A stretch of 63,312 bases of DNA, taken from contig JANQGT010000032.1 of the NCBI GenBank assembly GCA_028277205.1, positions 1 to 63,312 of the forward strand. The letters run 5' to 3'. The DNA is from Candidatus Altimarinota bacterium. Lineage in GTDB: Bacteria > Patescibacteriota > Gracilibacteria > BD1-5 > UBA2023. A program made the position numbers and the translations under genes. The first letter of the stretch is position 1. Each line of letters starts with the position of its first letter. Under the pieces are notes generated by a model that saw nothing but the letters and a program-made list of their open reading frames with translations, was not told the DNA's origin and searched no databases. Of the stretch, positions 1 to 63,312 are shown in pieces.

Positions 1-104
1 GGTCTCCGCATACCGAGGCATCCGATGAGACTCATGATGTCATATGACACATCGCATCAAAAGGCGATACTGCCATAAACCAAAAACCAAGCACAAAAAC
101 ACCG

Positions 105-2237
105 ATGAGACCGGCGGATTTTTTGAAATTTGTCGGTAGTATTTTCGTGGTCGCGCTCATATTTTTCGGTTCTTTTCTCGCCTACATCGTCTTCAATCCC
201 GGGCAAGCGCAATTTTTCGTCTCCTTTGGTATCAATCCCGGTGATATTGCGACGCTTCTTTCGCGGCTCGTCAATGCGATTTTTGGTATCGTCGCGTTCT
301 TGCTTTCCGTCGTGTGGCTTATTTTTCTCTTTCGTGCTATCCGCACAAAGAAAGAGTACAAGAAGCGCAAAGCGATATCGACGGTGCTCGCGGTGTTTTT
401 CGGGGTGGTGTTGTTTTCCGGTATCTCGCTCTGGGCGTATCTCATCCAGATCATCGGGGCGTCGGACTACGAAAATCCCGACGGCGGAGTCGTCGTCTAT
501 GACAATGCCATGCTCCTCTCCGAGGATCTTTCTGATTCCGCACGCGTTACGAGCTTTGCAAATCTCATCGGACCGATCACACTGAAATACGATCTCTCGT
601 CAAATGCTCGGGTCGTCTCGCGCAGCATGTCCATCACCGGATATTCGGTCGACTACGACGGCGATGGGATATTTGATCAGGAGGGGACGAATCCCGCCAC
701 GGCGCAAAATATCGTGCACACCTACGCCGAGGTGGGGACATATACTCCGACGATCCGATATACCGGCAATAACACTGTCACACGAGATATCGAGACCGTT
801 GACGTCTCGCTGCCCACTATTGACGTGATCGCACTCGTCGCTGTAGAGACGATACCGGAGCGTATGGGGGGGGTGAAGATCCGAATCGATGCCAGTGCGC
901 TGGAGCAGTACGGCAATGTCGAGTGGTATTTTTCCGATGATTTCATGACTCCGGTCAGCACCAGATACCGCTTTTCTCCCGATCGCATTTTTCGAAGTGA
1001 GGACTTTGTCTGTCTCGCGCTCTCGGATACCCTCGGGTGAAATGGAAGCTGCGATCGTGTCTTTATCATCTCTGCAGACGCGACAGCGCCGATTTCAGGA
1101 GAGATTTTTCTCGTACGAAATGCTCTCGATCCTCTCACGTACGCCTTTCATCTCGGCGAGGATGAGGGGAGGCTGCGAGTGGAAAACGGAGGCATCGAGA
1201 CCTATACCTGGATCATCGACGAGCGCCAGACCATCAGCAACAGCCCTACTGCAGAGCACACATTTCGGCGCTACGGAGACCATAACGTCCAGGTGGAGCT
1301 TGTTGATTTCATCGGAAATTCCATCACGCTCGAAGAGCGCTTTACCATATACGAGCCTGTGGAGCTCGATATCGAGACCGGCTCTGAGGACGGCGTACTC
1401 GAGATCATGATCGGCGATGAGCGGGCTACTCCCGAGACATACGACGTCCGGACCAATACCTATATGTTTACCGATATCGCCGTGCCGATGCGATTTCTCT
1501 TTGATGGTCGGGACGTACGCGTAAAAAATCCGCTCTACACTCTGAATGACGTGCGATGGGATGGTGATGGAGATGGAGAATATGAGATAAATGACGATCT
1601 CTTCGAGTATAATGTCAATACCTCCGATCGCCACACTGTCTCTGTGCAGTACACATTTTACTCTGAAAAGCGAGATGATCGCCAGACTGTCGAGGAGACG
1701 ATCGTCATCGATGCCGAGGAGCGGGAGATTTATCCTCGATTTACCATAGAGAAAACCACCTCCTACGTCCCGGTGCTCGTCACTGTCGATGCGTCGGCGT
1801 CGAGCGTTTCCGACGGTGCTATCGCCAAATACATCGTAGACTTCGGAGAGTCCGGACGCCCACCGCAGGAGGGTGACGCCCGACAAAACTACCGGTATAT
1901 GAATCCGGGGACGTATGATATCACCGTCACGGTCGTACGCGATGACGGAGAGCGGGAGAGCGCGACACAAAAACTAGTCCTGAAAAAACTCGGAAATCGC
2001 ATCGTGATAAATACGAGTGTCTCATCCGGACTCGTTGGTCGCGGTGTTGATTTTGATGCGGCGGGGTCGGTCGGACAGATCGAGTCGTACTACTGGAAAT
2101 TTGGCGATGGCACCGTCTCCGTCGATTCTGCCCCCACTCATTCGTATCAGGAGACGGGGGAGTACACCGTGTCGCTTCGTGCGACATTCGCGGATGGATC
2201 AGTCCAGGAGCAGACCGAGACGTTTCGCGTTGAGTAG
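105..2237 (+). CDS. Membrane-anchored multi-PKD-domain surface protein (about 710 aa)
   Basis: ORF-track pieces 105..1040 and 1179..2237 share a frame and are joined by one in-frame TGA (1038..1040) with no TAA/TAG between them. Hydrophobic N-terminal segments are followed by repeated PKD-like modules (HTYAEVGTYTPTIRY; HTFRRYGDHNVQVELVD; YRYMNPGTYDITVTVV; YYWKFGDGT...HSYQETGEYTVSLRA). Ends in TAG. Confidence 0.7.
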
Positions 2238-2440
2238 CTTTCAAATATCATAGTCACCCTCTTTACTCTGTGGAGATTGGGATGATGCCTCCGTGACACC
2301 GGAAAGCTCTGAAATGATATTCGTGGCAAAGCGGAATTGATAGGGTTTAGGGGGTCTCTTGTTTCATTGCCCCTTTCTGTATCTGTCAATGATTTGTGAA
2401 ACTATAGAAATTCATATACTGTCTTTTGTTTCTTATCCTC

Positions 2441-7298: not shown

Positions 7299-7793
7299 AT
7301 GTCAATTATCCTCGGTCTCGATCCCGGCACGACGACACTCTGATACGCATTTCTACAGTCTCGTGGACGGGGAGAGGCGCATATCCTCGATGTCGGTGTG
7401 ATCGACACCAGCGGACAATCCTCACAAGCGCAAAAATTTCTAGCGCTCGCCGAGGATATGGAGACGCTGCTGGACCGGTATCGTCCTGGATGTGCCGGCG
7501 TGGAGAGACTCTTTTTTTCAAAAAATCAAACAACCGGTATCGCCGTCGCCGAAGCGCGAGGAGTCGTCTGCTATCTGCTTGCGAGGCGGGGTATCCCTAC
7601 CATCGAGTATACCCCGAGCGAGCTAAAACGCGCACTCTGCGGAAACGGTCGTGCGCCGAAAATTCAGATGCAGCGAGCACTCATGAAAATCCTGCATCTG
7701 CCCGAGCTGCCGACGCCGGATGATGCGGCGGATGCGCTCGCACTCGCGTATGTGGCGGGACTCTCAAATCGCACTGGCGAAGGTATCGCGTAA
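7299..7793 (+). CDS. ruvC: Crossover junction endodeoxyribonuclease RuvC
   Basis: The N-terminus reads MSIILGLDPGTTTL-G-YAF (TGA at 7341..7343). Downstream are ...ERLFFSKNQTTGIAVAEARGV... and PTPDDAADALALA, a typical RuvC catalytic layout. Ends in TAA. Confidence 0.9.
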
Positions 7794-11381: not shown

Positions 11382-11766
11382 TGTCATCCTCGGGGTAGAC
11401 TACGGCGCACGGCGCTCCGGGATCGCCGTCGCGAGGGAAAATATCGCATTTCCCCTGACTGTCGTCCACTCTCCCGCTCTCATCGAAACACTTGAAAAAT
11501 TTGCCATAGAGGAATCCGTGGATACCATCGTCGTCGGTCTGCCGCGGCGACTGGACGGCTCCGAGAGCGATACGACCCATCGGGTTCGCAGCTTCGCGGG
11601 CAGGCTCGGAAGAGCGCTTTCGGATATCGCCATCGAGCTTTGGGATGAGCGGCTCTCATCCGTCGAGGCGTCCCACGTCCTCGCGCAGATGGATGCACGC
11701 GGTCCTGACGACGCTATCGCTGCGAGCATCATGCTCCAAAATTTTCTGGATACCAATCATTTATAA
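11368..11766 (+). CDS. ruvX: YqgF/RuvX-type putative pre-16S rRNA nuclease
   Basis: Motifs are ILGVDYGARRSGIAVA and VVGLPRRLDGSESD. A GTG start overlaps the end of rplI by 14 nt. Confidence 0.85.
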   Translation: MLSSSVILGVDYGARRSGIAVARENIAFPLTVVHSPALIETLEKFAIEESVDTIVVGLPRRLDGSESDTTHRVRSFAGRLGRALSDIAIELWDERLSSVEASHVLAQMDARGPDDAIAASIMLQNFLDTNHL

Positions 11767-11777
11767 TCCTCTCTCTC

Positions 11778-12488
11778 ATGCACCTCGCACTCATCATGGA
11801 TGGCAATCGCCGCTGGGCGAAACGCCAATGACTCGTCAAAATGCTCGGACACTCTCGGGGTGGTGATGCGATCGAGCGTGTCGTGGAGTGGTGCGTAGAG
11901 CGCGGCGACATAGACATACTGAGTGCGTGGGCGCTCTCAAAGGATAATATCAAAAAACGTGAATCCGCGGAACTGTCGCATATATACGATATTATTCGTG
12001 ATCGGCTCCCGCGTCTCATGCCAAAGCTGCTCGATAACGGCGTGAGCTTTCATACGGTGGGAAATCTCGATCTCCTACCGGACGATATCGCAGCGCTCCT
12101 GCAGGATATCACTCATCAAACGACTCGCGGAAATGTGATGAAATTTATCATTACCATCGGGTACGGATGACAGGATGAAATCGTCCGCGCTGTCCAAAGT
12201 ATGCTCTCGGAAATTGCCCGATCGGACGACCCGAGAGAGACTGCAAACATGATCGCATCGACTCTCGATGAGGCGGTATTTTCGTCGTACCTCGACACCG
12301 CAAAATTTCCGCATCCGGATCTCATCGTGCGTACCGGCGGTCATGAGCGTCACAGTGGATACTGGCTCTATAGCTCCGAGTACTCGGAATACCGGTTTAC
12401 CGAGACGTTTTGGCCGGACTTTTCTCGAAAAGAACTCGATGAAATCATGTCGGAATTTACAGCTCGTACGAGAAATTTTTGAAAATAG
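11778..12488 (+). CDS. uppS: Undecaprenyl-diphosphate synthase (cis-prenyltransferase)
   Basis: Motifs are HLALIMDGNRRWAKRQ-G-L, GY-G-GQDEIV and IRTGGHERHSGYWLY, with TGA at the conserved Gly positions. Three track fragments lie in one frame. Ends in TAG at 12486. Confidence 0.9.
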
Positions 12489-13760: not shown

Positions 13761-14336
13761 ATGGAAATACCCTCCTCTCACATAGCTGCGCAATTCGCAT
13801 GTCCCATAGCAGCGCTGATACAGGGCATAGCGACTCGTCAGTCCCGGGTACTCGCTATGGATCCGATCACTCGCGACGAGGCGGAAATGATCGCACGATG
13901 GATCACACAAAATCCATGGATGATCCGGAAAACACCCGATGCGCTTCTTTCTCATGTATGATCGACATTCATCCGTCGGGGTGAGAGTGGAGAGGTCATC
14001 GCGTTTTGTACGGGCACATTTGTGTGAAAATACCAGGGAGCACCCGTCTGGAAAATCGGATCATTCGTGATCAGTCCGGATCACTGTGGAAACGGCATTG
14101 GAAACAACTTTCTATCGGATGTCTCGCAAGCTATGCAATTGACATTTCCCAATGCTATCCTCGTGATCATCACACAGGATCGCGCACCGTGAATGATCCG
14201 TATCGCGCAAGCAAACAAATTTGAACAGCTCTCACGCGATGATCATCCAAAACTCTGGGAAATCCTGGAAACCGGTGGAGCGATCGCTAGATACAAACGC
14301 GTATTTACGACGACCTTGAGCGCTGATGCTTTTTAG
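13761..14336 (+). CDS. GNAT-family N-acetyltransferase
   Basis: Same-frame pieces are joined across TGA at 13959, 14025 and 14190. An acetyl-CoA-binding-like motif is present (ISPDHCGNGIGNNFL). Ends in TAG at 14334, overlapping the convergent rsgA by 32 nt. Confidence 0.6.
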
Positions 14337-15237
14337 TCTCTATCTCTAAACGAAGTCGCATATAGGCATCGTATCGAAATTTTGGAATGTCGCCCGCCTC
14401 CATCGCATCCCGCACTGCGCATCCGGGTTCGTCTCGATGTTGACAGTTGCGATATCGACATCTCCGGATATAGGGACCGAGATCGAGAAAATACTGATCA
14501 AGCTCTGTAGTCGATAGCTCGAAAAAGTCGAGCGCACGAATCCCGGGAGTATCCACGATATACGAATTTTGATCCCATTCGTACATTTTTGCTCGTGTCG
14601 TAGTATGCTGTCCGTCTCATCATTTTTCACTGACGGATTGGGTTTTCGCCAGATTTCCCCCCGCTATTGCGTTTATGAGCGATGATTTGCCGACTCCGCT
14701 TTTTCCTACGAATGCGACGGTTTGTCCCCGAAGATGATTTTTGAGTGCCTCAACACCAAAACCGGTCGCGCAGGATGTGTGAAATATGCTGATTGCGAGC
14801 GCTTTTTGATACCATGCAATCACCTCGTCCCGTATCATTTTCAGATCACTTTTCGTGATACATATGAGAGCGGGAATATTGGCAGACTGTGCGAGTATGA
14901 GATACCGATCGATAAAACCGGGCTGAAATTTTGGAGACTTCGCGGAGGCGACGATGACGATGAAATCCAAATTTGAGGCTATCGACTGCGATGAACGTCC
15001 CGATATGGAGCGTCGGGTACTGTCCCCCCGCTTTCGGGCGAGGAGGTTGTTTCTTTCTCGGAGAGTCCAGTCTTCTCCTGGGAGAAGCGTGAGAAAATCC
15101 CCTACCACAATGGATTCAAATAGATCATCATGCGGATGTAATTCAAGATTCTCGATCTCTCACTGGGGCGACATGAGCGCGATCCACCTTTTGTTTGCCG
15201 AAGATTTCGTCTCTATAACTCGGTAATGACGTTTCAA
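14305..15237 (-). CDS. rsgA: Ribosome small-subunit-dependent GTPase RsgA (YjeQ)
   Basis: It shows a circularly permuted GTPase layout (LICITKSDL ... FVGKSGVGKSSLINAI) and then SEK-G-G-DGQHTTT. The tandem TGA-TGA is at 14617..14622. A C-terminal zinc knuckle follows (CRYRNCQHRDEPGCAV). The start is uncertain: TTG 15237 gives a full OB domain, and ATG 15174 is the alternative. Confidence 0.85.
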
Positions 15238-15266: not shown

Positions 15267-16181
15267 TTATTGCGCTCCCAACAGACCATCGATCTGCCTC
15301 GTAAATTCCGAGACGGGATACGCTCCCTCGACGACTACATATTCATTGGTCTCGGTGTCGATGATGACAGTACCGGGCGTCCCTCATACACCGAATTGTC
15401 GTCCTTCCTGGGTTTCGGCGTTGAATTTTGCGATATTTCTATCGCTCGCGCGACACTCGGCAAATGCCTCGACATCGAGTCCGATCTCTCCCGCGAGTGT
15501 ATCGAGATCCGAGACAGAATAGACGCCTCCCTGGGTATCCGAGCCGTCGAGGATGGCGTGAGTGTATTCGTAGTATTTCTCGGTGCCTCCGATCTCTCCC
15601 GCACAGAGCACCGCTTCCGCTTTTGCCTCTGTGCCGCTATGATTGACGCCGCGATGATTTCGAAATGCAAAAGCAATCTGATCGCCGTACTCTGCGCGTA
15701 CCGCGTCGATCGTGCCGTCTCTGTACTGGCGTATACAAAACGGACACTCGAGATCCGAGTACTCTAACATGAGCAGTCGAGCGTCGGCGTCTCCTAGGAT
15801 GTACGCCGATGATTTGATTGCTTCGATGGTTTGCTCGGATGTAGTTCGGGTATTTACAGCTCCGGATTGCCCCCCGGTGTTGCTCGTGTTTTCGGTATCA
15901 TTTTCGACGTTTGCTCATCTTTGTCGCAGATACTGCCGCAGCTGAGGGATTTGCTCCTCTGCGCTCAGACGCGTCGCCTCCAGCATGAGCTCGTAGTTTT
16001 GCTGTCCTCATACACGATCGTACTCGTGCTCGAGGTAGCGCTCCATCACCGACTCGGCGACTTCTTCGGAGCGAACGACACTGAAATAATACCCCGATCC
16101 GACGGAGACCGCCATCGTCACAAAGAGAAGCATGACGACCGTCGCCTGTCCCGCGCGAGAAGCGCACAATATCCGAAGCAT
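15267..16181 (-). CDS. DsbA-family thiol:disulfide oxidoreductase with N-terminal membrane anchor
   Basis: The thioredoxin CPFC motif sits in LMLEYSDLECPFC. The C-terminal FGV-G-GTPGTVII spans the TGA at 15384. The N-terminal extension (MLRILCAS...VVMLLFVTMAVSV) is recovered across two more TGA codons. Ends in TAA at 15267. Confidence 0.8.
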
Positions 16182-19177: not shown

Positions 19178-20536
19178 ATGAAACCGGAATTTCGAGAGTA
19201 TTTCACACGAGAGTTTTTCGATGAAAAACCGGGTGAGGCAGAGGCGTTTTTCGAGAGTCTGCTCGCTCCGCGCCCAAAAACATTTCGCATCAATCGAAAT
19301 AAGACAAGTCTCGAAACATTCGCGAAGCGATGGAAATCCCGGGGACTCCCGATGGAGCCGACCTCGAATCCGTGGATATTTTCCACCGGGTGAGACCGGA
19401 CTATCAAGCTCGGGAAAACGCCCGAACACCTTGGCGGACACCTCTACGTTCAGGAGCTTTCGGCGGGGATGAGTGCCGAAATTCTCGCCGACTGAATAGT
19501 CGATGAAAACCCGGATCTGCTGGTGCTCGATATGGCGGCGAGCCCGGGCGGCAAGACGACGCAACTCTCGGAGCTGTATCCGCATGCCGGTATCGTCGCA
19601 AATGAACCGGACAAAACCCGGATTCCCCAGCTTTTGGAAAATATCGATCGTATGGGTTCGGGGAATATCGCCGTCACAAATGTGTCGGGTGCTTTTTTTG
19701 CGCGTACGCCCGAGGTATTTGATCGGATCCTCCTGGATGCGCCGTGCTCCTGAGAGGGCATCGCCTACAAAGCTCCGGAATCCCTCGACTACTGGAATAT
19801 CAAAAATATCGAAAAAATCGCGAAGCTCCAAAAGCGCCTCCTGTCTGCAGCACTCTCGGCACTAAAGGTATGAGGGACGATGGTCTACTCCACCTGCACG
19901 ATGAATCGCGTGGAAAATGAGCAGGTGATCGAGTCCTGCCTCCGATCCGCATCGGATGCGTATCGTATTCTTTTCATGAGGCGGTATTTTCCGCATGTCG
20001 ATGAGGGTGGGGGATTTTTCATCGCAAAGATCGAAAAGATCGCTCCCGAGACTCCGCGTATCGCACCGCCCCACATCGCAAAGCCGAACGAAGAGCTCAT
20101 GCCTGCGGATGCTCGGTCGGTCCGACTCCTGCGTGATTTTTGTGATGCGTATGCTATCGAGCTCTCGCCTGCGCGGATATGGCGTCATCGTGATACGCTG
20201 CTTTCCTTTGCGGATGCATCACCCGGCAGCCTGATAGCGCGCACGTGGTATACACTGAAATTTGGCTATCGCCTCGGGCATATGGAGAGCGCGAAATTCA
20301 TTCCGGATTTTCGGCTGCTGCGCGATGCAGGAGCACACAGCGCATATGTGTACGACCTCGATGATGATGAGTTTGCGCGATTTCGTACGGGTGAGCATAT
20401 TCATATACGGGACGCTACACTCCCCGACGGCCATATCGCTGCGCATCATCATGGCATCGCCGTCGGCATGCTCCAGAAAAATCCCGGGACGAATACGCTG
20501 AAAAATCATATCCCCCCGAGATTGCGAAAGCGGTAG
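19178..20536 (+). CDS. NOL1/NOP2/Sun-family rRNA (cytosine-C5) methyltransferase, RsmF-like
   Basis: Motifs are VLDMAASPGGKTTQL, DAPCS-G-EG (TGA at the Gly) and GTMVYSTCTMN. Three track fragments are in one frame. Ends in TAG. Confidence 0.85.
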
Positions 20537-20844: not shown

Positions 20845-20898
20845 AACTTTTTTGAAAAAAACGACTCTACGGACTACGGACAAAGAGCGTATCCGCAT

Positions 20899-20926
20899 TT
20901 GAGATTTTAGACGTTTTGGCTATAAT
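20899..20926 (+). promoter_or_regulatory. Sigma-70-like promoter for clpC
   Basis: The sequence is TTGAGA (20899..20904) - 16 nt - TATAAT (20921..20926), 28 nt upstream of ATG 20954. Confidence 0.5.
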
Positions 20927-20953
20927 GCTTCACTTGCTTTCTTTTTCGATCGT

Positions 20954-23548
20954 ATGTTTCACCATTTTTCCGACGAATACAAAGCCCTCATGCTCGAGAC
21001 TGAAAAAGCGGTAAAATTTCGCGGATATAGCGAGATTATCCCGCAGGATGTTTTTTTGCAGGTGTGCAAGCTGCAGTCCGGTGATATTTTCGAGGTACTG
21101 GCAAACTACGGGATAAACGAAAAAATCGCACTCGAGGTTTTCGCGCAGAGTCCGTTTGCCGATGCGTTTGAGGAGCGGGAGGGAGACTACGGAGGCATCA
21201 GCGCTCATCTGAAAGAAATCATCGTCCTCTCTGTAAAGATCGCCGCAGGATACGAAAAGAAACATGCGCAGACGAGCGATTTCTTGCTTGCACTCTTTAA
21301 GAGTGGAAAGGAGTCGTGGTTTTATCAGTTTTTTGATTTTATCAGTGTCAATCCGAAAGACGTAGAGCAAAGTCTCATCGAGCTCTCGCGCGATACCGAG
21401 CCGGACGAGCCCACGCAAAATATGAACTCTCTCAACTCCATCCTCCAGTCGCTCGAGGAGGGCATCCAGGAGCAATTCGGAGGATTTGACGGACCGGGGG
21501 CAAATCCATTTCAGATGAACGGTCCCAGAAATCGCCCCGGAAAAAAAGAGGAGAGCCAGACGCCGGCGCTCGATTTTTTCGGGATCGATCTCACACAGGA
21601 GGCGCGCGACGGAAAAATAGACGTCATCATCGGTCGTGATGAGGAGATAGAGCGACTCGTGAGCGTCATCAATCGAAAGACGAAAAACAATCCCTGCCTC
21701 GTCGGTGAGCCGGGCGTGGGGAAAACGGCGGTGGTGGAGGGGCTCTCTCGCAGGATCGCCGAGGGATCGGTGCCACTCGCCATGCAAAACAAACGCGTGA
21801 TGTCCCTCGATCTCGGGGCGATGGTGGCAGGGACGAAATATCGCGGAGAATTTGAGGCGCGCATCAAGCAAATCATCGACGAGGCATCGAAGCTCGAAAA
21901 TGAGGTAATCCTGTTTATCGACGAGATCCATACCATCATCGGTGCCGGAGCGGGGGAGGGGACGCTCGACGCGGCAAATATCCTGAAGCCCGCCATGGGT
22001 CGCGGGAAAATCTGCGTCATCGGAGCAACGACGCTCAACGAGTATCAAAAGCATATCGAAAAGGATTCCGCGCTCGAGCGCCGATTTCAAAAGGTGGAAG
22101 TGGACGAGCCGGACGAGACGACCGCGACGGCGATCATCTACGGACTGCGTGAGGGATTCGAAGAATTTCACAATCTCATCATCGATGATGCCGCGGTCGA
22201 TGAGAGCGTCAAACTCTCTGTGCGCTACCTCACGGATCGTCGTCTGCCGGATAAAGCCATCGATCTCGTCGACGAGGCGTGCAGCGCAAAAAGCATGACG
22301 TACAATCACGACGAGTCCGAAATCCTGGCGCTCAAGGAAAAAATCGAAAAACTGCAAAAAGACATCGAGGGATTCGTCATCGGGCAAATGTATCACAAAG
22401 CGATAAAAGCAAAGGAAAAGCAAAACGAAATCGAGGAGCAAATCCGCGAAAAACGCGCAAAGAGAAAAATCCCCCGCGAAAATCGTCTGCACATCGGTGC
22501 GGATGACGTCCGTCGCGTCATCGAGCGGATATCCGGTATCCCCGTCGGAGAGCTGCAGCTGGAGGATCGCGAGAAGCTGCAAGATCTGGAGACGCGCCTC
22601 AAGACGCACATCATCGGTCAGGACAGTGCCATCGCCTCCATCGTGAGCGCCATCAAGCGCAGTCGGACGGGCATCGCCGATGAACGGCGTCCCATCGGGA
22701 GTTTTCTCTTTTTCGGACCGACGGGAGTCGGAAAGACCGAGCTCGTGAAAGTACTCGCACGAGAATTTTACGGAGATGAGGATGCCCTCATAAAAATCGA
22801 TATGTCCGAATATACCGAGCGCGCCTCAGCATCAAAGCTCATCGGGACCACAGCGGGATATGTCGGCTACGAGGAGGGGGGTATGCTCACGGAAAAAGTG
22901 CGCCGCAAGCCCTACTCCATCGTTCTCTTTGACGAGGTGGAAAAGGGAAATCCGGAGATATTTCACCTGCTCCTGCAGATCCTGGAGGACGGTATCGTGA
23001 CGGACGGAAAGGGGCGAAAGGTGAATTTTAAAAATACGATCATCGTCATGACCTCCAATATCGGGGGTGAAGAATTTACAAAAAAAGCGGCGCAAATCGG
23101 ATTTAACATCGACGATCGAAAGGAGCGAAAAATATTTGACGATATCGAGAAAATCAAAGATCGCATCGTCAAAAATCTCGACGACTATTTCGCGCCCGAA
23201 TTCATCAATCGTATCGACAAGCTCGTCTTTTTCGCGCCGATAGATCAAAAGGTGCTCAGAAAGATCATCGTCCAGCAGCTCCAGCGTCTCGTTGTGCGGC
23301 TTCAGAGTCTCAATGTCGAGCTCGCATACGATACCCGTACGATCAATTATATTCTCAAAGAGACATTTGATCCACAGTACGGTGCTCGCCCCGTCCGACG
23401 ATACATCCAGGATCATATAGAGGAAAAAATCGCCGATTTTTTGATAGAATGACAAAAATATGATATTATACGGATGACCGCAGGAAAACGCGGACTCATC
23501 TTCAAGTCTGAAATCTCTCTCGAGCATGCGAATCCGGTGATGGCGTAG
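20954..23548 (+). CDS. clpC: Clp/Hsp100 AAA+ chaperone, ClpC-type (two AAA modules, short middle domain)
   Basis: It has Clp_N repeats. Walker A motifs are GEPGVGKTA and GPTGVGKTE. The middle coiled coil is short (about 50 aa), as in ClpC rather than ClpB. The TGA at 23450 extends the protein by 32 codons to a TAG at 23546. Confidence 0.9.
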
Positions 23549-29600: not shown

Positions 29601-30123
29601 TGAAGCATTCAAGGAGCGTACGATGGTCGGCGTGAAATATATGCTGAAACTCCATCACCTCGTCGAGGATAAAATCCACGCTCGCGCGGTCGGTCCCTAC
29701 TCTATGGTGACGCAGCAACCCCTCTGAGGAAAGGCGCAAAACGGAGGACAGCGACTCGGAGAAATGGAAGTCTGGGCGCTGGAGGGATACGGATCCGCGA
29801 ATATCCTCCAAGAGATGCTCACGATCAAATCGGACGATATCAACGGACGTATCCAGTCCTACGAAGCCATCGTCAAACGATCTGCGATCAGGCGTCCGAA
29901 TATTCCCGAATCATTCAATGTCCTCCTGCGGGAGCTGCAGGCGCTCAATCTCAAGGTCGAACTTTTGGATATTCATGAGCTCGAAATCCTCGAACAAGCA
30001 ATGCTGGAGCGCTACGAGATCCTCGAAAAGCTCGAAGGACAATTTGATCTCGAAACGGAAAATCTCTGAAGTGATGCCCGTGTAGATACCTCGCCGGCAG
30101 CGCAGGTGGAAGGTGACGAATAA
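26611..30123 (+). CDS. rpoB: DNA-directed RNA polymerase subunit beta
   Basis: Four track fragments are in one frame. TGA falls at invariant Gly positions: 27967 (ATPE-G-PNIGL), 29047 ([14 protein letters not shown]) and 29725 ([22 protein letters not shown]). The TGA at 30067 adds an 18-codon tail before a TAA. Confidence 0.95.
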
Positions 30124-30162: not shown

Positions 30163-34242
<4,080 letters not shown>

Positions 34243-36759: not shown

Positions 36760-36779
36760 TGTTTTTGTCATTTCGTGAT

Positions 36780-37859
36780 ATGAAATTCGAACTTGATTCT
36801 CTCATCGAAGAGCTCGCAGAGTGCGAGCACAAACTCAACGACTCGGAAATATACTCCGATCCTCCTCGCCTGCGGGATCTCATGCGTCGAAAAAAACGCC
36901 TCGATGAGATCGTCGGACTGTACGTGGAGTATAGACGTCTGCATGAAACCGTCGACGAAGATAAGGCTCTCATAGAGACCGAGTCGGACACCGAGATCAT
37001 CGCCATGGCTCGCGAAGAGCTGGAGTCAGCGCGTGCTCGCATCACCGAGCTCGAAGAAGCGCTGAAGATCGCTCTGCTCCCAAAAGATGAGAATGACGAT
37101 AAAAACATCATCATGGAAATCCGAGCGGGCGCAGGAGGAGAGGAGGCGTCTCTCTTTGCGGCGGAGCTGTCCCGTGCCTATACGATTTACGCGGAGGAAA
37201 ATGATTTTTCCGTCGAGATGCTCGACTCTCACGAGAGCGAGTCATGAGGGTATAAAGAAGTTATTTTCAAAATATCGGGTATGGGTGCCTACTCGCACCT
37301 AAAGTACGAGGCGGGTACGCATCGCGTCCAGCGCATTCCCGAGACCGAGAGCAAAGGTCGTGTGCACACGAGCACCATCACCGTCGCCGTCCTCCCCGAA
37401 GTCGAGGATGTAGAGGTGGATATCCGTGAGGAAGATCTGGAGATCACCGTCGCGCGCGCGAGCGGAGCGGGCGGTCAGCATGTCAATAAAACCAACTCCG
37501 CCGTGCGAATGGTGCATACGCCGACGGGCGTCGTCGTCGAGTGTCAGGATGGGCGCAGTCAGCTGCAAAACAAGCAAAAGGCGCTTCTCATCCTGAAGTC
37601 GCGCGTATACGCCATGGAGCAGGAAAAGCGCGATCGCGAGCTCGGAGCGTCGCGTCTGGCTCAGGTGGGGACGGGTGATCGCAGCGAGAAAATTCGCACG
37701 TACAATTTTCCGCAGGATCGCGTGACGGATCACCGTATCGGACAAAATTTTTCAAATATTCCGGGTATCATGGCAGGGAGACTCTGACCCATCATCGAAG
37801 CCCTCGCTATCGCCGATCAGACGGAAAAACTGGAACGCGCGGCAAAATGAGCAGAATAA
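36780..37859 (+). CDS. prfA: Peptide chain release factor 1
   Basis: It has an RF1-type PxT tripeptide region ([14 protein letters not shown]) and the GGQ motif ([11 protein letters not shown]). Two track pieces are joined at TGA 37245 (ES-G-GYKE). TGA at 37785 and 37848 extend the C-terminus to a TAA at 37857. Confidence 0.9.
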
Positions 37860-42934: not shown

Positions 42935-44449
42935 ATGTCAGTCGTCGATACCGTGTCCGATCTCATCCGCGATATCGAGCGCCGCCTCGACACCGCCGAG
43001 ATCGCCCCCGAGCGAAAAACGAGTGGCACGGTCGTCTCGGTCGCGGACGGCATCGCGCGAGTCTCGGGACTGTCGGGAGTTGCGTTTTCAGAGATTGTCG
43101 AGTTTGAGTGCGGTGCCCGGGGAGTCGCTCTCAATCTCGAGGAGTATACTGTGGGTGTCGTCGTATTGTCCGGTTTTCTGGATATATCGGAGGGGATGAT
43201 CGCCACGGGTACCGGTACGATGCTCGAGATACCGGTCTGAGAATCACTGCTGGGACGCGTCGTCGATCCCATGGGAAATGCGCTGGATGCCGGAGAACCG
43301 CTGACAGTGAAAACAACCGCTCCGGCTGAAAGACCGGCTCCCGGAGTCATGGATCGAAAATCCGTACATGAGCCGCTGCATACCGGTATCAAAGCAATCG
43401 ACGCACTGATACCCATCGGACGCTGACAGCGCGAGCTCATCATCGGTGATCGCGGCACCGGAAAGACGCAAATCGCCATCGACACGATCCTCGCCCAAAA
43501 GCACGAGGGAGTGCGATGCATCTATGTCGCCATCGGACAAAAAGATGCGAAAATCGCCGCCCTGACCGAGACCCTGCGAAAATCGGGCGCGATGGAATAT
43601 ACCACTATCGTGACGGCGGGGGCGAGCGCTCCTGCCAGTATGCGGTGGCTCGCACCGTATGCGGGATGCGCTATGGGCGAGTACTTCATGCGGCGAGGAG
43701 AGCATGCTCTGGTGGTGTACGACGATCTGTCGAAACACGCGAACGCCTACCGTGAAATGTCGCTGCTGCTGCGGCGTCCGCCAGGACGAGAGGCGTACCC
43801 CGGCGATGTGTTTTATCTGCACTCGCGTCTGCTGGAGCGCGCCGCAAAACTCTCGGATGAGATGGGCGGCGGCTCTCTGACGGCACTGCCTATCATCGAG
43901 ACGCAGGCGGGCGACGTCTCGGCGTATGTCCCGACGAATGTCATTTCCATCACCGACGGTCAGATTTTTCTTGAGACTTCACTCTTCAATTCTGGCGTGC
44001 GCCCCGCCGTAAACGTGGGACTCTCCGTCTCTCGCGTGGGCAGCTCGGCGCAAACCAAAGCCATGAAAAAAGTCGCGGGCGGTATAAAGCTGGTACTCGC
44101 CCAGTATCGCGAGCTGCAGTCGTTTTCCCAGTTTTCATCCGATCTGGATCCCGAGACGCGAAAATCGCTCGAACACGGGAGGCGACTCACCGAAATCCTG
44201 AAGCAGGATATTGATTCGCCCGTCCCGTTTGAAAAACAGATCGCACTGTTTTATATGACATGATGCGATATGCTCGACGATATACCGATCGAGCGCATTG
44301 CCGAGTTTGAAAATATGCTCTATCAAAAGCTGAATGCCGATGGAGAAGTGCTTCAAATACTTGGTAGGGAGCGCGCGCTCTCCGACGACACTGCTGCAAA
44401 AATGGACACGATCATCGATGAGACCTGCGCGCTTCTTTTATCATCGTAA
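42935..44449 (+). CDS. atpA: F-type ATP synthase subunit alpha
   Basis: The Walker A region spans the TGA at 43424 ([18 protein letters not shown]). Track pieces are in one frame. TGA at 43238 and 44261 is read through. Ends in TAA at 44447. Confidence 0.95.
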
Positions 44450-45845: not shown

Positions 45846-47243
<1,398 letters not shown>

Positions 47244-50912: not shown

Positions 50913-53345
50913 CTACGTCCGAAGTAAAATGCCGCGTACCGAGAGCATACTCACGATACGATCCTGGATCGCGAGCGCCTGCTCGTCTGTGATGGTGCCA
51001 TCCTCCTCCTGCATCCGGATACGAAATGAGACGGACTTTTTCCCTGTCTCGATGCGATCGCTGTCCTCATACACGTCGATGACCGATACGCTGCGTATGA
51101 GCTCGTGCATATCCAGGATCTCTCTCTCGATGTCTCCTGTCGGTGTACGCGCATCCATGATGAAATCAAGCTCGCGATCAATGGTAGGAAAGCGAATGAT
51201 GGGACTGTAGTGAAATTTGCTCGTCTCGGATATGAACAGCAGGAGGGCGATGTCGATCTGCAGATACAGCGTCTCGGTAGAAATCTCGAAGGCTCTCGCG
51301 CGCTCGGGATGGATCCGTCCGAAGCTCACACTCGCAGTGTCGCCGAGGTGCAGCCGCGCTGATTTATTTGGGTGAAATATCGAATTTTCCGGTATGTCCT
51401 CCCGGATGACCGGAGGGATATTCGGCGCAAACGTATGCGCGAGATCGTCGATGAGTGTTCGCAGTCCTTTCAGACTCCATCCGGAAAATACCGCCGAGAG
51501 AAATATCCGCTCCGAGGGATTGTCGTTTTCGGTATGAAAATAGCTCTTTCCGATGTCGTAAAACGCAAACTCATCATACTCCCGCATATTGTCCGCGACC
51601 GAGCAAAAGAGCATACCGGCAGCAGTGCGACGCATGAGCGACGCTTCTTCAGAGTAGGCGTTCGCGACCGCTATCGCTCGGCTCGGATCGAGTCAGAGTT
51701 TTGCATCCAGAGCCGGATATGAAAATGAACGCGTATATACTTCATAGACTCACTTTCCGCAAAAAAACTCCCGCAGCCGATGCTGAAAATGTACGAGCGG
51801 ATCGACGGGTATCGGCACAAAGTCTCCCGAGAACGCCACCGGCTCTATGTGCTCGTAGCCGTAATGGCGGGCGATCTCCTCCACGATATCCTCGGGAATA
51901 TCGACGTCTTTCGTCGCGCGCCAGGATGGGACGCGTATCTCGTAGTTTCCGGTATTTTCCGTGACACCAAATCATAGCCGGACCAAAATATCATGAATTT
52001 TTTCTGGTGAAATATCCGCACCGATGCGCGATGTCAGAAATGCATGCGAGCAGCTGACAGTGATATCTCGCAGCTTCGTCGTATCCAGAAAATGAAATGT
52101 CTTCGCAGGCGCTCTATCGTATCCGTAAAACTGCATATAGTCTCCAAGTCGTCGAGTCGCACGCTCCGGAAGCAGCGGATCGAGAGATTTTTCGTAGCGG
52201 GTGGATGCGTCCGTGCGAATACCGAGTCGCTGAGCGGTACGCCGCACCGTCGTCGCATCAAAACAAACCGCCTCGTAGACGACCCGCGTAGTCGACTCTG
52301 TCACCGCTGTCGACATGCCGCCCATGATCCCCGCGATGCTGATGGGTCCGGAGTCGTCCGCGATCACGACGTCGTCCGGGGTGAGCGTATAGGTCTTGCC
52401 GTTCAGAGCGTCGATCGTCTCGCCGTCGTGGGCTTTTCGGATGCGTATCATACCGCGGACTTTTTCGTAGTCGAATGCGTGCATGGGCTGACCGAGCTCG
52501 GTCATGATGGCATTGGTGATGTCGACGTGCGTGTATTTCGTCGCTATGCCCGAGGCGTGCAGGAGATGAGTGACACCGTCAAATACGCTCTTTCTCGTCA
52601 GGGCATTTTCATAGAGCATAAAGTGTGCCGACTGTACTGCGTCCGTCTCGATTTTCGCGCTAAACTCGGATATTTCTGCGATTTGTTTCGGATCATCGGC
52701 GATAAAATCCTGTCTGAAAATCGCCGCAAACTCTCGCGCATTTCCCTCTACCGAAAAGAGGTCGGGGCGATTGGTGATAAATTTATTGTCAATTTCGAAC
52801 ACTGTCGTGCGAAGCGGGACAAAAAATATCTCGCCGTCGCGTCCGGGAAATGGGAGCGTGAGATCAAATACCGGTTTTCCGATGCTTTTTTCGAGAGTGG
52901 TCTCATCGATACACTCCTCTAAAATGAGTATGCCCTCTGCCCGCTCGTCGGCGAGAGAGAGCTCATCCAGACTGCAGATCATCCCGTCGCTCGTCTCGCC
53001 CCGGATCTGCGAGCGCTGGATTTCCAGATCTTCGCGCAGCTTCGTGCCGGGCAGAGCGACGGCGACATAGTGCGCATTTCGGACATTCGGTGCGCCACAG
53101 ACGATTTGTCGCGGATCTCATTTGTCGGTATGTAGCGTCACGACATTCAGTCGATCGGAGTCGGAATGCGCTCGCACGCTTTCGATTTTTCCCACGACGA
53201 CCGAGTCCGGCACACCGATATGGATGATATCGTCGATCTCGGCAGTGCGGATAGAGTATGTATGGGCGAGCGACGTATCGTTGATTTCGGAGCGGATCGC
53301 GTCGATATCCGTGTAGCGCCGGATCCACGAGAGCGGGATTTTCAT
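50913..53345 (-). CDS. pheT: Phenylalanine--tRNA ligase beta subunit
   Basis: Three track pieces are in one frame, and the 51636..51971 gap was walked by hand (TGA at 51972, 51750 and 51693). It has a tRNA-binding N-terminal domain (VVVGKIESVRAHSDSDRLNV), B3/4 and B5 regions, and a C-terminal FDX-ACB-like domain. Ends in TAG. Confidence 0.9.
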
Positions 53346-55947: not shown

Positions 55948-57837
55948 CTACTTCTTCAAAATATTTACAAATGTCTCCGACGGGATACTGACCCGTCCAA
56001 ACTGACGCATGCGCTTTTTCCCCTCCTTTTGCTTTTCCAGGAGTTTTCGCTTTCGTGTCACGTCCCCGCCGTAGAGTTTCGCCGTGACGTCTTTTCTCAG
56101 AGCGCTCAGATCCTCTCGGGCGATGATATTTGCCCCGATCGCCGCCTGGATCGCGATGGCAAACTGTGCACGCGGAATGGACTCTTTGAGTTTTTGGCAG
56201 ATACGCTGTCCGATCGTCCGAGCCTTATCACGATGCACGATCATGCTAAATGCATCGACGATCTCCCCCGCTACCAAAAAATCAAGCTTTACGAGGTCGT
56301 CCGCACGGTATCGGGAAAACTCGTAATTCATACTCGCGTATCCGCTCGAGAGGCTTTTGAGATCATCGTAAAAATCGCCGACGAGCTCTGCCATGGGAAT
56401 GTCATACATCAGCATCGTGCGGTCTCGATCGAGGTATGATTGGTGCGTTACGTTTGCACGTCGATCCTGCGCGAGTCCCATGCAGGCGCCGACGTACTGG
56501 GCGGGCGTCAGGATTTCGAGCTTTGCGATCGGCTCCTCGATAGAGAGAAAGCTTCCTGCTTTTGGAAAATCATCCGGATTTGAAAATGTGATACGCGTGT
56601 GAGTCGCGTCGTTTTCCTCATACACCTCGGGTGACAGTCGCGAAAACTCCTGCGCTCGATCACCGGGTAAAATCACACGATAGGTGACCTGCGGACTCGT
56701 CATGATGACATCCAGCTCGTGCTCGCGCCAGAGCCGCTCACGGACGATATCCAGATGCAGCAGCCCCAGAAATCCCGCCCGAAATCCGTGTCCGAGTGCC
56801 GGGGAGATCTCGTTTTCCATGGTCAGAGCGTCGTCGTTGAGCGAGAGTTTTCCCAGTGCGTCGCGGAGCTTTACGTATTCATCGGCGTCATTGGGATATA
56901 CTCCCGCAAATATAAAGGGTGTCATCCGACGAAATCCGCGGATCGGATGCTTGCTATCTGCATTTCCAAAAAAGAGCGTATCACCCACCTTGGCATCAGA
57001 GACGGATTTCAGACCCGTGACGACATAGCCGATTTGTCCCGCTTCGAGTGTTTTGGTCGGTGTCGTCTTTGGTGTAAACGTGCCGACCTCGATCACCTCC
57101 ATTTTTACCCCGGTATTCAAAAGCTCGACCCGGGATCCGCGTGCGAGCGTCCCGGAAAAGAGCTTTATGTAAATCACGACGCCTTTGTACGGATCGTACT
57201 GCGAGTCAAATATGAGTCCCTTCACGCTGTCGATATCTGCATCCGCATCATCATGAGAGATGAGCTGACTCGTTTGTGACAGACGCTTTGGTGCTGGGAT
57301 GCGCTTTACGACCGTATCGAGGAGCATCTCGACGTTTTCGCCCGTCTTCGCGGAGACGGGGATGATATCGGCGATATCGCATCAGAGCAGACTCGCCACC
57401 TCCGTACTCACGCCCTCCACGTCGGCGCTCGGTAGATCGATTTTATTGAGCACAGGGATGATGACGAGATCGTTTTCCATTGCCAGATACACATTTGAAA
57501 GTGTCTGCGCCTCTACGCCCTGCGTCGCATCCACGACCAGGATAGCGCCCTCCACACTCGCCAGACTCCGCGACACCTCATACTGAAAATCGACGTGCCC
57601 GGGAGTATCGATGAGATTTAGCTCTTGGTCGCGCCATCGCATCCGCACGGGTGCGAGCTTTATGGTGATGCCGCGCTCCTGCTCCAGCTCCATACTATCC
57701 AGCGTCTGTTCTTTCAGTCCGCGTTTGTCGACCGTACCCGTCAGCTCCAGCATGCGATCGGCGAGCGTCGATTTGCCGTGATCGATATGGGCGATGATGC
57801 AGAAATTTCGGATATGATGATCCATACAGGCGGGCAT
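55948..57837 (-). CDS. lepA: Elongation factor 4 (LepA)
   Basis: Motifs are [25 protein letters not shown] and NKIDL. Pieces are joined at TGA 57379 ([18 protein letters not shown]). The LepA-specific C-terminal domain is present. Ends in TAG. An alternative start is ATG 57825. Confidence 0.95.
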
Positions 57838-60176: not shown

Positions 60177-60182
60177 TATCCC

Positions 60183-60974: not shown

Positions 60975-61018
60975 ACTCGCGGATTTTCTTTCGTACGATA
61001 GGAGATGAGCTGTCCGCA

Positions 61019-63157
61019 TTAGTGCTCGTGATCGCGTATCTGGGCTAAAAACTCCTCTATTCCCATCGTCGGTATGCCGAGTGATTTCGCTTTTTGCAGT
61101 TTTGATCCTGGCTTTTCACCGACGACGAGCATATCGAGTTTTTTGCTGACACTGTCTACGAAGCGCATTCCGGCGGATTTTGCGATCTCGATAATCTGCT
61201 CTCTGGTCATGCCGTCGAAACTTCCGGTGATGCAAAATGTTTTTTCGGATAGACTATATTCAATAATACCCTCGAAAGATATATCCGGCAGGATGATATG
61301 AAGCTCCGGAAAGAGACGCGAGAGCGTCGACTCTCGCGCGGTAAAATAGGCAAATACCGACTGGCTCGCCACCGGTCCCATGTCGGGTATGGACTCCAGA
61401 TCTTCTGCGGACAGCGAGCTGAAAATTTTCAATAGTCTCTCTCCAGTTGGCTTTTCCGTGTCGTTGCGATTGATGCTTTGCGCGAGAAATATCGCAAGCG
61501 ACTGGGCGGTACGACGACCGATATTTGGAATGCCGAGCGCAGTGAGCAGACGATGCAGCGGGACGTGTCGACTGTTTTCTATCGAGGTCAGGAGATTTTC
61601 GACGGACTTTTCGCCGAGTCACTGCATATTGACCAATGTCTCGCGATGCACATACAGATGGTATATCGATGCCATATCGCTGATGAACCCCTCACGACGA
61701 AATCGCTCGATTTGTTTTTTCCCGAGACCGTCGATATTCATGCCGTGTTTGCCTGCAAATGTCTCGAGTCCGCCCTGCAGCTGCGCAGGACATCCCGTCC
61801 GATTCGGACAAAAATACGCGATCTTTCCCGTCTCTTGCTCCAGAGGAGTCTCGCAGGCGGGACACTTTTCGGGCACTCCGACGCGCTTTTCATTTCCATC
61901 TCGCGCTTCGGTGATGACGCTCACGACCTCGGGGATGACCTCGCCCGCCCGCATGAGAAATATCGTATCCCCTTCGTGTGCGTCTTTTGCGGCGAGCTCG
62001 GAGTAGTTGTGCAGAGTGGCACGGGACACTGTGACGCCCCCTACGAGCACGGGATCCAGGATCGCGACGGGTGTGACGATCCCGCTGCGTCCGACGGAGT
62101 GTATGATATGCTGTATGCGTGTACGCGCCAGCTTGGCGGGAAATTTGAATGCGATGGCATAGCGCGGATGGTGTGCCGTCAGTCCCAGATGTTTCCAGAG
62201 ATTCAGATCGTCCACTTTTATCACCAGCCCGTCGATGTCAAATCCGAGTCTGGGACGCTCGGCGGTGATGGCACCGAGTCGCTCGACGAGTGCTTCGAGA
62301 TTTTTCGCACGCTCGAAAAAAATGCCCGAGGTTTCAAATCAGAGCCTTTCAAGTGCTGCGATATACTGCGAATATGTAGAGACGGAAATACCGGTTTTTG
62401 ACCCAAACAATGCGCGAGTTTCCGGCTCCTCCAGATGCGGAAAGCTATAGGCGAAAAACCGGAGCTTGCGTGATTTTGTTACCTTCGGGTCCAGCTGTCT
62501 CACGCTTCCGGATGCGGCGTTTCGCGGATTTGCAAAGAGCTTTTCGCCCGCCTGTTTTCGCGCCTCATTGATCCGGGTAAACTCATCATGCGGCAGGATG
62601 ATCTCGCCGCGGATTTCCACCGACTCTTTATAGGAAATGGTATGGGGAATATTTTGGTCGGTCATGATATTTTGCGTGATGATCTCACCCTCCATACCGT
62701 TTCCCCGTGTGAGCGCACGCACGAGCTGACCCCGCTCATAGGACAGTGAAATCCCGAGTCCGTCAAATTTTACCTCGATGCAGTAGGCGATCGGCTCGTC
62801 GGTTTTCAGGATGTTTCGGATGCGCGCCTCGAAATTGCGGATTTCCTCGATACTGTAGGTATTATCCAGAGAGAGCATTGGGGTCGCGTGCGGACGCTTT
62901 TGAAACTGCTCGTCGGGTGCGACGGCGATGCGACTCGTGGGGGACTCGGGATCAAAATCCCCATATCGCCGCTCCGCCTCGACCAGCTGGGAAAACAGGC
63001 GATCATACTCCTCATCGGAGATGACGGGCGACTCCTGCTGATAGTACAGACGATTGTGCTCGCGCACGATGTCCCGCAGGAGCGGGATGTCTTTTTGCAG
63101 GATGGCTTTTTGGGAAAACAGTCGCGAGGACTCTGCGAGCAGGATCTGGATATCCAT
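61019..63157 (-). CDS. ligA: NAD-dependent DNA ligase
   Basis: The adenylation motif is CIEVKFDGLGISL. Also present are an OB fold, a Zn finger (CPACETPLEQETGKIAYFCPNRTGCPAQ), HhH repeats and a BRCT domain. Three pieces are in one frame across TGA at 62339 and 61619. Ends in TAA. Confidence 0.95.
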
Positions 63158-63312
63158 AGTATTCGGCGTGTCGATATTGCCGCCATACTATCGGAAAGTC
63201 TTTTTGCTTCAATACCAAAAAACCCCGAACACCTTGGTAGGCTTCGGAGCTGTAGTGGGATGTCCCGAGTGCGTTTTGCGGTGCGTGCGAATGACGCGAG
63301 AGTGAAAAGCAG

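Follow-up and report, generated by a model that had tools for sequence, protein, structure and literature searches.

In-frame TGA codons encode glycine in a high-GC contig of a Gracilibacteria-type bacterium

TGA is a sense codon, with the meaning of glycine, in the 63,312-nucleotide contig JANQGT010000032.1, the whole of which is referred to below as the window. The contig is best understood as belonging to a CPR bacterium of the Gracilibacteria (BD1-5-type) that uses genetic code 25, in which UGA serves as a fairly rare glycine codon and translation stops at UAA and UAG only; we give this reading a probability of about 0.94. The original prediction, made from the sequence alone, had proposed the same meaning for TGA, and it is borne out both by alignments to standard-code orthologues and by comparing the window codon by codon with the DNA of relatives.

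Results

In-frame TGA codons in the gene models

Genes were called with a self-trained codon-usage model recognizing only TAA and TAG as stops. The 47 genes obtained cover 91.7% of the window and contain 115 in-frame TGAs (5.96 per 1000 codons); some of those close to an N-terminus may precede the actual start of translation. At least one TGA is present in 39 of the 47 genes, and the codons are distributed uniformly along the genes (KS p = 0.80), with no excess at the 3' ends. The TGAs singled out previously at 27967, 29047 and 29725 (rpoB), 43424 (atpA) and 7341 (ruvC) each lie in the frame of their gene, and the minus strand does read TGATGA at the proposed tandem site in rsgA. Conserved genes had been described as split at TGA into pieces sharing one frame. 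Among the 24 genes counted as conserved, for which either an E. coli orthologue or an alignment of rpoB/rpoC was available, this is indeed observed in 18, with 42 TGAs inside the orthologue-aligned spans and the frame kept in every case. Under table 11 no full-length rpoB, rpoC, atpD or ligA is recovered, the longest TGA-free piece amounting to 37% of rpoB, 38% of ligA and 51% of both rpoC and atpD. The ndk protein contains no TGA.

Two further statistics were set aside. Dropping TGA from the stops doubles the summed length of the ORFs, and this was discarded as evidence since the same is seen in high-GC standard-code control loci. The TGA share correlates negatively with codon-usage typicality (rho = -0.35, p = 0.017), a relation that is partly circular and was left uninterpreted.

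Gene ends

All 47 models terminate in TAA or TAG, as had been stated for a set of 53. The observation as such holds, but it does not constitute independent evidence, because models built with TGA as sense guarantee such ends. The models reach TAA or TAG near the end of the orthologue alignment, and none of them needs a TGA stop. The C-terminal segments of rpoB (18 codons), clpC, atpD and prfA had been regarded as tails gained by reading through an apparent stop; those of clpC, atpD and prfA are instead conserved ends of the respective proteins. In rpoB, whose product has 1165 residues, the alignment with close relatives continues to residue 1164. The TGA of clpC matches a glycine in PDB alignments, G784 in ClpC of B. 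subtilis, and the aligned stretch extends 18-22 residues beyond it in other proteins of the family, S. aureus ClpC and T. thermophilus ClpB. In atpD, the TGA at 47190 occupies a glycine column within the C-terminus of the E. coli protein, and the one at 37785 in prfA falls within the aligned C-terminus of release factor 1.

These ends also bear on the possibility that UGA has a dual, context-dependent role, meaning glycine at most sites and termination at the ends of some genes. TGA does occur 1-4 codons before TAA or TAG in four genes (uppS, prfA and two others, g23 and g27), which is estimated to be somewhat above chance. However, the TGA at 12480 in uppS would match the glycine of RRFG, a motif conserved at the C-terminus of UppS, no gene in the window depends on a TGA stop, and in all seven relatives both rpoB and rpoC terminate in TAA with no intervening TGA. 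A dual role thus appears very improbable.

Alignment of TGA to glycine columns

To assess which amino acid TGA specifies, the genes were aligned with orthologues of E. coli K-12 and, for rpoB and rpoC, with some 70 standard-code loci. Of the 37 TGA positions aligned, 23 are glycine in the references, as are 494 of 698 positions occupied by GGN codons of the window itself; with a background glycine frequency of 0.078, the binomial probability of such a match for TGA is 6e-17. The reference residue differs from glycine at the remaining 14 positions, a proportion close to that of the GGN codons (29% non-Gly). When only the residue-aligned positions of the E. coli proteins are considered, glycine is found at 17 of 31, and neither tryptophan nor cysteine at any. 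In rpoB and rpoC, six of the nine TGAs occupy columns that are glycine in 38-73 standard-code taxa. The likelihood of glycine exceeds that of asparagine, the next best residue, by a log10 ratio of 15. Other well-sampled codons decode as in the standard code, CGA and CGG as arginine included, and no other reassignment is visible among them, AGG (n = 9) and TTA (n = 4) being too rare in the window to decode.

The same tabulation of alignment columns leaves tryptophan, the meaning of UGA under table 4 in Mycoplasmatales and several insect endosymbionts, hardly credible. Some database entries of related genomes (P0065 and P0101) carry the label "gcode 4", a historical annotation choice, and the ACD BD1-5 genomes among the rpoB matches bear it. 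Yet TGA falls on tryptophan at none of the 37 positions, against 18 of 41 for TGG in the window; glycine is favoured over tryptophan by a log10 likelihood ratio of 41; and the relatives have no TGG at any TGA site of the window, while TGG of the window corresponds to TGG in the relatives in 64 of 70 comparisons. The earlier judgement that tryptophan does not fit these positions is therefore upheld.

Table 1. Genes of the window with in-frame TGA codons considered in the text
Gene	Coordinates	Strand	TGA positions	Remarks
rpoB	26626..30123	+	26677, 27967, 29047, 29725, 30067	
rpoC	30163..34242	+	32236, 33640, 33853, 34114	
atpA	42935..44449	+	43238, 43424, 44261	
atpD	45846..47243	+	45945, 46041, 46482, 47190	
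prfA (release factor 1)	36759..37859	+	37245, 37785, 37848	
rsgA	14305..15174	-	14617-14622 (tandem TGA-TGA)	Pfam RsgA_GTPase match
ruvC	7299..7793	+	7341	Pfam RuvC match; Gly in E. coli RuvC
uppS	11640..12488	+	11829, 12168, 12480	Pfam Prenyltransf match
rsmF-like methyltransferase	19178..20536	+	19391, 19493, 19751, 19871	Pfam Methyltr_RsmB-F match
clpC/clpB-type ATPase	20852..23548	+	23450	TGA within conserved C-terminal D2-small domain
MoxR-type AAA ATPase	35773..36759	+	35914	TGA just before Walker A region; Pfam AAA_3 from residue 49
DsbA-like thioredoxin-fold protein	15267..16169	-	16008, 15915, 15384	Pfam Thioredoxin_4 and DSBA matches
pheT	50913..53345	-	53118, 51972, 51750, 51693	
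lepA	55948..57825	-	57382	Gly in E. coli LepA
ligA	61019..63157	-	62339, 61619	

TGA sites in individual genes

The correspondence with glycine extends over genes of diverse function (Table 1). In rpoB, the columns of the TGAs at 27967, 29047 and 29725 are glycine in 69-73 standard-code taxa, the first two are also G in PDB RpoB chains, and the site at 26677 is GGN in seven of seven close relatives. In rpoC, the sites at 32236, 33640 and 33853 are glycine in 58/58, 52/55 and 38/53 standard-code taxa, respectively, and GGN or TGA in the relatives. Glycine of the E. coli orthologue is matched at 43238 and 43424 in atpA (LEVPVG and IPIGRGQRELI), at 46041 and 47190 in atpD, at 37245 in prfA and at 51972 and 51750 in pheT, and the tandem TGAs of rsgA align with S-G of the E. 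coli protein (SDNSGLGQHTT). As predicted for uppS and the rsmF-like gene, TGAs coincide with glycine of E. coli IspU at 11829 and 12168 (WAKKQG and NYGG) and of E. coli RsmF at 19751 (DAPCS-G-EG) and 19871; two further TGAs of uppS, at 11646 and 11706, are probably located 5' of the true start.

Some sites depart from this pattern. The TGAs of ligA are both covered by the alignment with E. coli LigA (residues 20-704) but stand in variable columns, L and R. The TGA at 46482 in atpD falls on the first proline of GQMNEPPG, which is conserved in E. coli; this anomaly is resolved by the nearest relative (L008), which has alanine (GCT) there, its codons at the other three TGA sites of atpD being GGT, GGA and GGA. 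A conserved glycine had also been proposed for the FGV-G-GTPG site of the DsbA-like protein (15384-15386). The column proves to be variable, and the site is uninformative on residue identity because solved homologues have T or S in it.

The placement of TGAs in these genes makes it scarcely tenable that TGA is still a stop and that the split genes are pseudogenes, or are rescued by selenocysteine or programmed read-through. Nothing specific speaks for such a state, although the ORFs called under table 11 include long ones of up to 849 aa. Essential single-copy genes (rpoB, rpoC, atpA, atpD, prfA, pheT and ligA) would each be broken two to five times, with frame and conservation kept on both sides of the TGAs, and the codons would not be expected to lie uniformly along genes and specifically on glycine columns. 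For selenocysteine, 115 sites are far too many, and none is aligned with cysteine.

Comparison with related genomes

At the TGA sites of the window, the DNA of related genomes has GGN in 39 of 56 comparisons and TGA in 7. Conversely, the 188 in-frame TGAs of the relatives correspond to GGN of the window 145 times and to TGA 7 times. TGA and GGN swap freely among relatives in the manner of synonymous codons, and the relatives share the use of UGA as glycine. Synteny with the GTDB relatives is confined to rpoB-rpoC, with single additional matches of atpD in L008 and of the MoxR-type ATPase in L004. The closest relative, L103, which adds four genes beyond rpoB-rpoC to the codon comparison, has GGN at 10 of 17 TGA sites and shares one TGA with the window in a six-gene syntenic block. 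In the region homologous to the MoxR-type ATPase gene, its JGI gene calls consist of adjacent pieces of 53 and 274 aa, as would be expected of a gene split at TGA under table 11.

The frequency of TGA differs greatly from one sublineage to another. The window has 9 TGAs in rpoB and rpoC combined, against 83-99 on glycine columns in low-GC relatives. The latter counts come from relatives at 65% rpoB identity, and near relatives (72-82% rpoB identity) have 0-4 TGAs in the two genes at any GC (0.38-0.57). A sequencing or assembly artefact, such as systematic G-to-T errors in GGA, the commonest glycine codon and one base away from TGA, is highly improbable, since independently assembled relatives have in-frame TGAs, some of them at shared sites, the low-GC relatives carry them in abundance on glycine columns, and such errors would not leave all other codon classes untouched.

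Decoding machinery

Release factor 1, the factor for UAA and UAG, is encoded in the window: the prfA protein scores 481 bits with the NCBIfam RF1 equivalog model (cut-off 400) and 288 bits with the RF2 model (cut-off 370). No prfB gene for release factor 2 is present within the 63-kb window, no tRNA genes were detected by ARAGORN in the window or in the loci of ten relatives, and an Rfam search of the window gave no match. A pattern scan of metagenomes for a Gly-type tRNA(UCA) yielded 32 loci, nearly all on low-GC contigs and unlinkable to the lineage. The sole match at 53% GC (L158) was rejected as uninformative, its adjoining PEP-CTERM protease ORF being intact under table 11. Reassignment of UGA to glycine, a tRNA-Gly(UCA) and the loss of RF2 are established for the lineage (PMC8629427; PMC4032931; 10.64898/2026.05.24.727570). 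By extension from this published work, UGA in the present organism would be read by a dedicated tRNA-Gly whose anticodon is UCA, probably with the identity elements G1:C72, C2:G71, G3:C70 and U73, and prfB would have been lost, leaving UGA free of competition from release factor 2.

Lineage and GC content

The best 120 matches of rpoB are MAGs with 66-82% identity, the named ones mostly Candidatus Gracilibacteria or Patescibacteria, together with ACD BD1-5. The GTDB representatives (L002-L008) are 65-75% identical in rpoB and are labelled Gracilibacteria, "Peribacteria" or Patescibacteria; the "Peribacteria" label is seen on some near relatives with few TGAs. The GC content of the window, 0.52, lies within the 0.21-0.53 published for Absconditabacteria and Gracilibacteria (PMC8629427). 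Placement in the code-25 clade, a matter of best-match names and not of phylogeny, agrees with the Gracilibacteria-type lineage proposed at the outset.

The loci of the nearest relatives reach a GC of 0.57. It is conceivable, if rather doubtful, that the window represents a distinct high-GC (0.52-0.57) subclade of code-25 bacteria with sparing use of UGA. Were such a subclade to stand outside the GTDB class presumed to use table 25, or to be drifting towards the loss of UGA, it would have a bearing on the retention or abandonment of a reassigned stop codon after the disappearance of AT pressure, the presumed driver of the reassignment.

Discussion

The use of code 25 by this lineage has been described before, and the finding is correct but ordinary: the contig is a high-GC addition with low UGA usage to a group in which UGA-to-glycine reassignment is textbook knowledge, and it raises no new question. 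Its consequences are practical. The default bacterial code truncates or splits 39 of the 47 genes, and re-calling with table 25 is needed before the contig is put to functional or phylogenetic use. The full-length rpoB of the window is not listed in a large protein collection, and a table-11 fragment of ligA is likewise without a record.

Several known systems also translate in-frame UGA. Insertion of selenocysteine depends on SelB and a SECIS element and affects a few sites in a genome, where the aligned residue is Cys or Sec, in contrast to the many genes affected here and the glycine columns occupied. Code 4, with UGA as tryptophan, is used by Mycoplasmatales/Entomoplasmatales, Hodgkinia, Zinderia, Nasuia, Stammera and some Eggerthellaceae; it has in common with the window the change of UGA from stop to sense and the fragmentation of table-11 gene calls, but differs in the amino acid and is found in unrelated lineages. 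The code-25 group of Gracilibacteria/BD1-5 and Absconditabacteria/SR1 corresponds to class JAEDAM01 in current GTDB. With this group the window shares TGA on glycine columns, TAA and TAG as stops, release factor 1 and its rpoB matches. It differs in standing at the very top of the published GC range and in devoting no more than about 8% of its glycine codons to TGA, with few TGAs in rpoB and rpoC compared with the low-GC relatives. Some Gracilibacteria and Absconditabacteria are reported to read CGG as tryptophan (PMC8629427), whereas CGG means arginine in the window.

Gene models and gene content

Genes were modelled in the window (63,312 bp, GC 0.52) with a self-trained codon-usage score that allowed only TAA and TAG as stops. 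The 47 resulting models cover 91.7% of the window and contain 115 in-frame TGAs, with at least one TGA in 39 of them. The in-frame frequency of TGA is 5.96 per 1000 codons, compared with 16-24 per 1000 for the two off-frames. The TGAs singled out in the original prediction all fall in the frame of their genes: 27967, 29047 and 29725 in rpoB, 43424 in atpA, 7341 in ruvC, and the tandem TGATGA at 14617-14622 of the minus-strand rsgA.

Pfam and NCBIfam matches identify hisS, ruvC, nusA, rplI, uppS, smpB, rsgA, an rsmF-like gene, clpC, relA/spoT, RF1, NIF3, a MoxR ATPase and VKOR-family, DsbA-like, VWA and MurL-like proteins. Alignment to E. coli loci identifies murD, atpA, atpG, atpD, pheT, rluD, ndk, lepA, ybeY, map and ligA; atpC was recognised only by eye. 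The ndk protein (149 aa) has an identical copy on a 1.4-kb Logan contig (SRR20820739_2259431, run SRR20820739), and no other trace of the organism was found in the assemblies index.

Selected features of the window
Coordinates	Strand	Feature	Remarks
3-2237	+	PKD-domain protein, cut by window start	Cell envelope
3788-5596	+	602-aa cysteine-rich protein	Many CxxC-like motifs; no Pfam match
5597-7298		1.7-kb stretch	Sole long stretch without a confident gene model
5906-6904	+	ORF, weak Pentapeptide-repeat match (E = 1.4e-4)	7 in-frame TGAs; score below threshold of codon-usage gene model
23526-26400	+	Two proteins, 509 and 455 aa, directly upstream of rpoB	Hydrophobic N-termini, presumably secreted; no Pfam match; 8 TGAs in the first (509 aa)
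36759-37859	+	RF1 (prfA)	NCBIfam equivalog, 481 bits (cut-off 400)
37933-38850	-	Thr/Ser/Ala-rich protein, presumably secreted	Cell envelope; no TGA; no Pfam match
38953-40356	-	MurL-like protein	Full-length, sub-threshold NCBIfam MurL match, 302 bits (cut-off 700)
40356-41126	-	NIF3	Adjoins MurL-like gene
41159-42487	+	Divergent murD	27% identical to E. coli MurD
57995-59599	-	M23 peptidase with S-layer-homology (SLH) domain	Cell envelope

TGA as a sense codon

All window proteins, with TGA written as X, were aligned to the orthologous loci of E. coli K-12; for rpoB-rpoC, the genome collection supplied about 73 loci of standard-code taxa and 7 of close relatives. The aligned spans contain 42 TGAs, in 18 of the 24 genes with an orthologue alignment, and the frame is always kept across them. 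Under the standard bacterial code (table 11), the longest uninterrupted piece amounts to 37% of rpoB, 51% of rpoC, 55% of atpA, 51% of atpD, 49% of prfA and 38% of ligA. The TGAs are positioned uniformly along the genes (KS p = 0.80), a pattern that true stops with random read-on behind them would not be expected to give. Two further arguments were dropped: the ending of all genes in TAA or TAG is not independent evidence, as it holds by construction of the models, and the total ORF length, which doubles when TGA is read through, doubles in high-GC standard-code controls too.

Read-through of the apparent TGA stop extends rpoB by 18, clpC by 32, atpD by 17 and prfA by 24 codons. These counts, given in the original prediction, stand, but what it described as short C-terminal tails are conserved protein ends. 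TGA 47190 of atpD aligns with Gly within the E. coli C-terminus, and TGA 37785 of prfA lies within the aligned RF1 C-terminus. TGA 23450 of clpC is opposite G784 of B. subtilis ClpC; beyond it, ClpC of S. aureus and ClpB of T. thermophilus stay aligned for another 18-22 residues. The end of rpoB aligns with two close relatives up to residue 1164 of 1165. The conservation of these ends strengthens the sense-codon reading.

TGA as a glycine codon

The alignments support TGA as a glycine codon in the window (table 25), as originally predicted, with minor corrections. Six of the nine TGAs in rpoB and rpoC fall on columns with Gly in 69/69, 73/73, 69/69, 58/58, 52/55 and 38/53 standard-code taxa; the seventh is in the N-terminus, a variable region in which 7/7 close relatives have GGN at this position, and the remaining two are in unconserved C-terminal regions. 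Solved RpoB structures have G at 27967 and 29047. Among 33 TGA positions aligned with E. coli, 17 are opposite Gly, none opposite Trp and 2 opposite gaps. In the pooled alignments TGA falls on Gly at 23 of 37 positions (binomial P = 6e-17 against a background Gly frequency of 0.078), a share similar to that of the window's own GGN codons (494 of 698); TGG falls on Trp at 18 of 41 aligned positions. With a likelihood built from the window's own substitution profile, Gly is favoured over the next best residue, Asn, by a log10 ratio of 15, and over Trp, the table 4 reading, by 41. All other adequately sampled codons are standard in the same alignment table, CGA and CGG (Arg) included; AGG (n = 9) and TTA (n = 4) occur too seldom to be decoded from it.

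One of the original examples, TGA 15384 of the DsbA-like gene, is uninformative, since solved homologues have T or S in its column. TGA 46482 of atpD looks anomalous, being opposite the first of the two Pro in the GQMNEPPG motif, but Ala occupies this position in the nearest relative, and the site thus has a small residue in the lineage.

Related genomes provide a comparison at the DNA level. Where rpoB and rpoC of the window have TGA, the codon in seven related genomes is GGN 39 times, TGA 7 times and TGG never. Conversely, 145 of the relatives' 188 in-frame TGAs are on GGN of the window and 7 on its TGA, in columns that standard-code taxa mostly fill with Gly. TGG of the window is opposite TGG of the relatives at 64 of 70 positions. 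The closest relative found, a 394-kb JGI contig (rpoB 82% identity, locus GC 0.57), is syntenic with the window over rpoB, rpoC, a methyltransferase gene, g23 (a gene model of the window), MoxR and prfA, and has GGN at 10 and TGA at 1 of 17 window TGA positions. TGA and GGN thus interchange as synonymous codons do, across independent assemblies, which rules out a sequencing artefact as the source of the TGAs.

The use of UGA varies enormously among code-25 relatives. A modest peculiarity of the window is its sparing use of the codon: its rpoB and rpoC contain nine TGAs, those of the near clade 0-4 (loci L002, L003, L004, L005 and L008; 73-75% identity), and those of the loci L006 and L007 83 and 99 (65% identical, 26-28% GC). 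Judging from these loci, UGA usage is not a simple function of GC, because the near clade holds to 0-4 TGAs across GC 0.38-0.57.

Termination and decoding of UGA

The release factor encoded in the window scores 288 bits against the NCBIfam RF2 model (cut-off 370), below its RF1 score. UAA and UAG, the codons that RF1 recognises, are the only stops in the 47 gene models (TAG 27, TAA 20). A preponderance of TAG over TAA is unusual for bacteria; the excess plausibly fits a 52% GC genome terminating through RF1 only.

No tRNA genes or Rfam families were found in the window, and no tRNA genes in the relatives' loci examined. By analogy with the literature on the lineage, UGA would be read by tRNA-Gly(UCA) and RF2 would be absent (PMC8629427; PMC4032931; preprint 10.64898/2026.05.24.727570). 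A metagenome scan for Gly-type tRNAs with the UCA anticodon returned 32 genes, none of which could be linked to the lineage of the window; most belong to a conserved cluster of tRNA genes and are on contigs with 30-40% GC. The commonest of these tRNAs, with a Gly-type acceptor stem, is followed in the cluster by Ala(UGC) and Tyr(GUA), whose order varies, after which come mostly Arg(UCU) and Glu(CUC), and further along Leu(UAA). Nine genes (on contigs L118, L125, L134, L137, L155, L161, L164, L178 and L165) encode glyT-like tRNAs with a 6-nt anticodon loop, YUUCAR, equal to the UCC loop minus one C; those of L125 and L161 occupy a Thr-Tyr-Gly-Thr cluster position. The short loop is either a homopolymer assembly error or real. 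Another glyT-like tRNA with anticodon UCA (contig L158, 76-146, minus strand; 53% GC) adjoins a PEP-CTERM metalloprotease ORF intact under table 11, and is possibly a Gly tRNA that reads UGA in an organism outside the CPR, on a contig of 1.5 kb that is too short to judge.

A MurL/MurD-like neighbourhood

MurL is a UDP-MurNAc-L-Ala-L-Glu epimerase. The window carries a MurL-like gene, NIF3 and a divergent murD side by side. The MurD2/MurL route to D-Glu in peptidoglycan has been described only in Xanthomonadales, some Alphaproteobacteria and rare actinomycetes (PMC8788868), and a version of it in a CPR bacterium would merit attention.

Relation to known code-25 lineages

The rpoB protein is 66-82% identical to its best 120 matches listed, out of 5.8 billion proteins searched. 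The named proteins among them are mostly from 'Candidatus Gracilibacteria bacterium' and include the ACD 'gcode 4' BD1-5 genomes; the GTDB representatives found (rpoB 65-75% identical) are MAGs labelled Gracilibacteria or Patescibacteria. This agrees with the Gracilibacteria-type lineage originally proposed, the class-level placement being drawn from best matches only.

Glycine as the meaning of UGA is already well known, as the established code 25 of Gracilibacteria/BD1-5 and Absconditabacteria (PMC8629427); GTDB currently assigns table 25 to class JAEDAM01, leaving a few outliers unsettled (preprint 10.64898/2026.05.24.727570). Annotation of the contig requires table 25, and its sequence suggests a new, undescribed member of this known kind. 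Compared with the GC range of 0.21-0.53 reported for Gracilibacteria and Absconditabacteria (PMC8629427), the window, at 0.52, lies at the top, and two of its nearest relatives reach a locus GC of up to 0.57.
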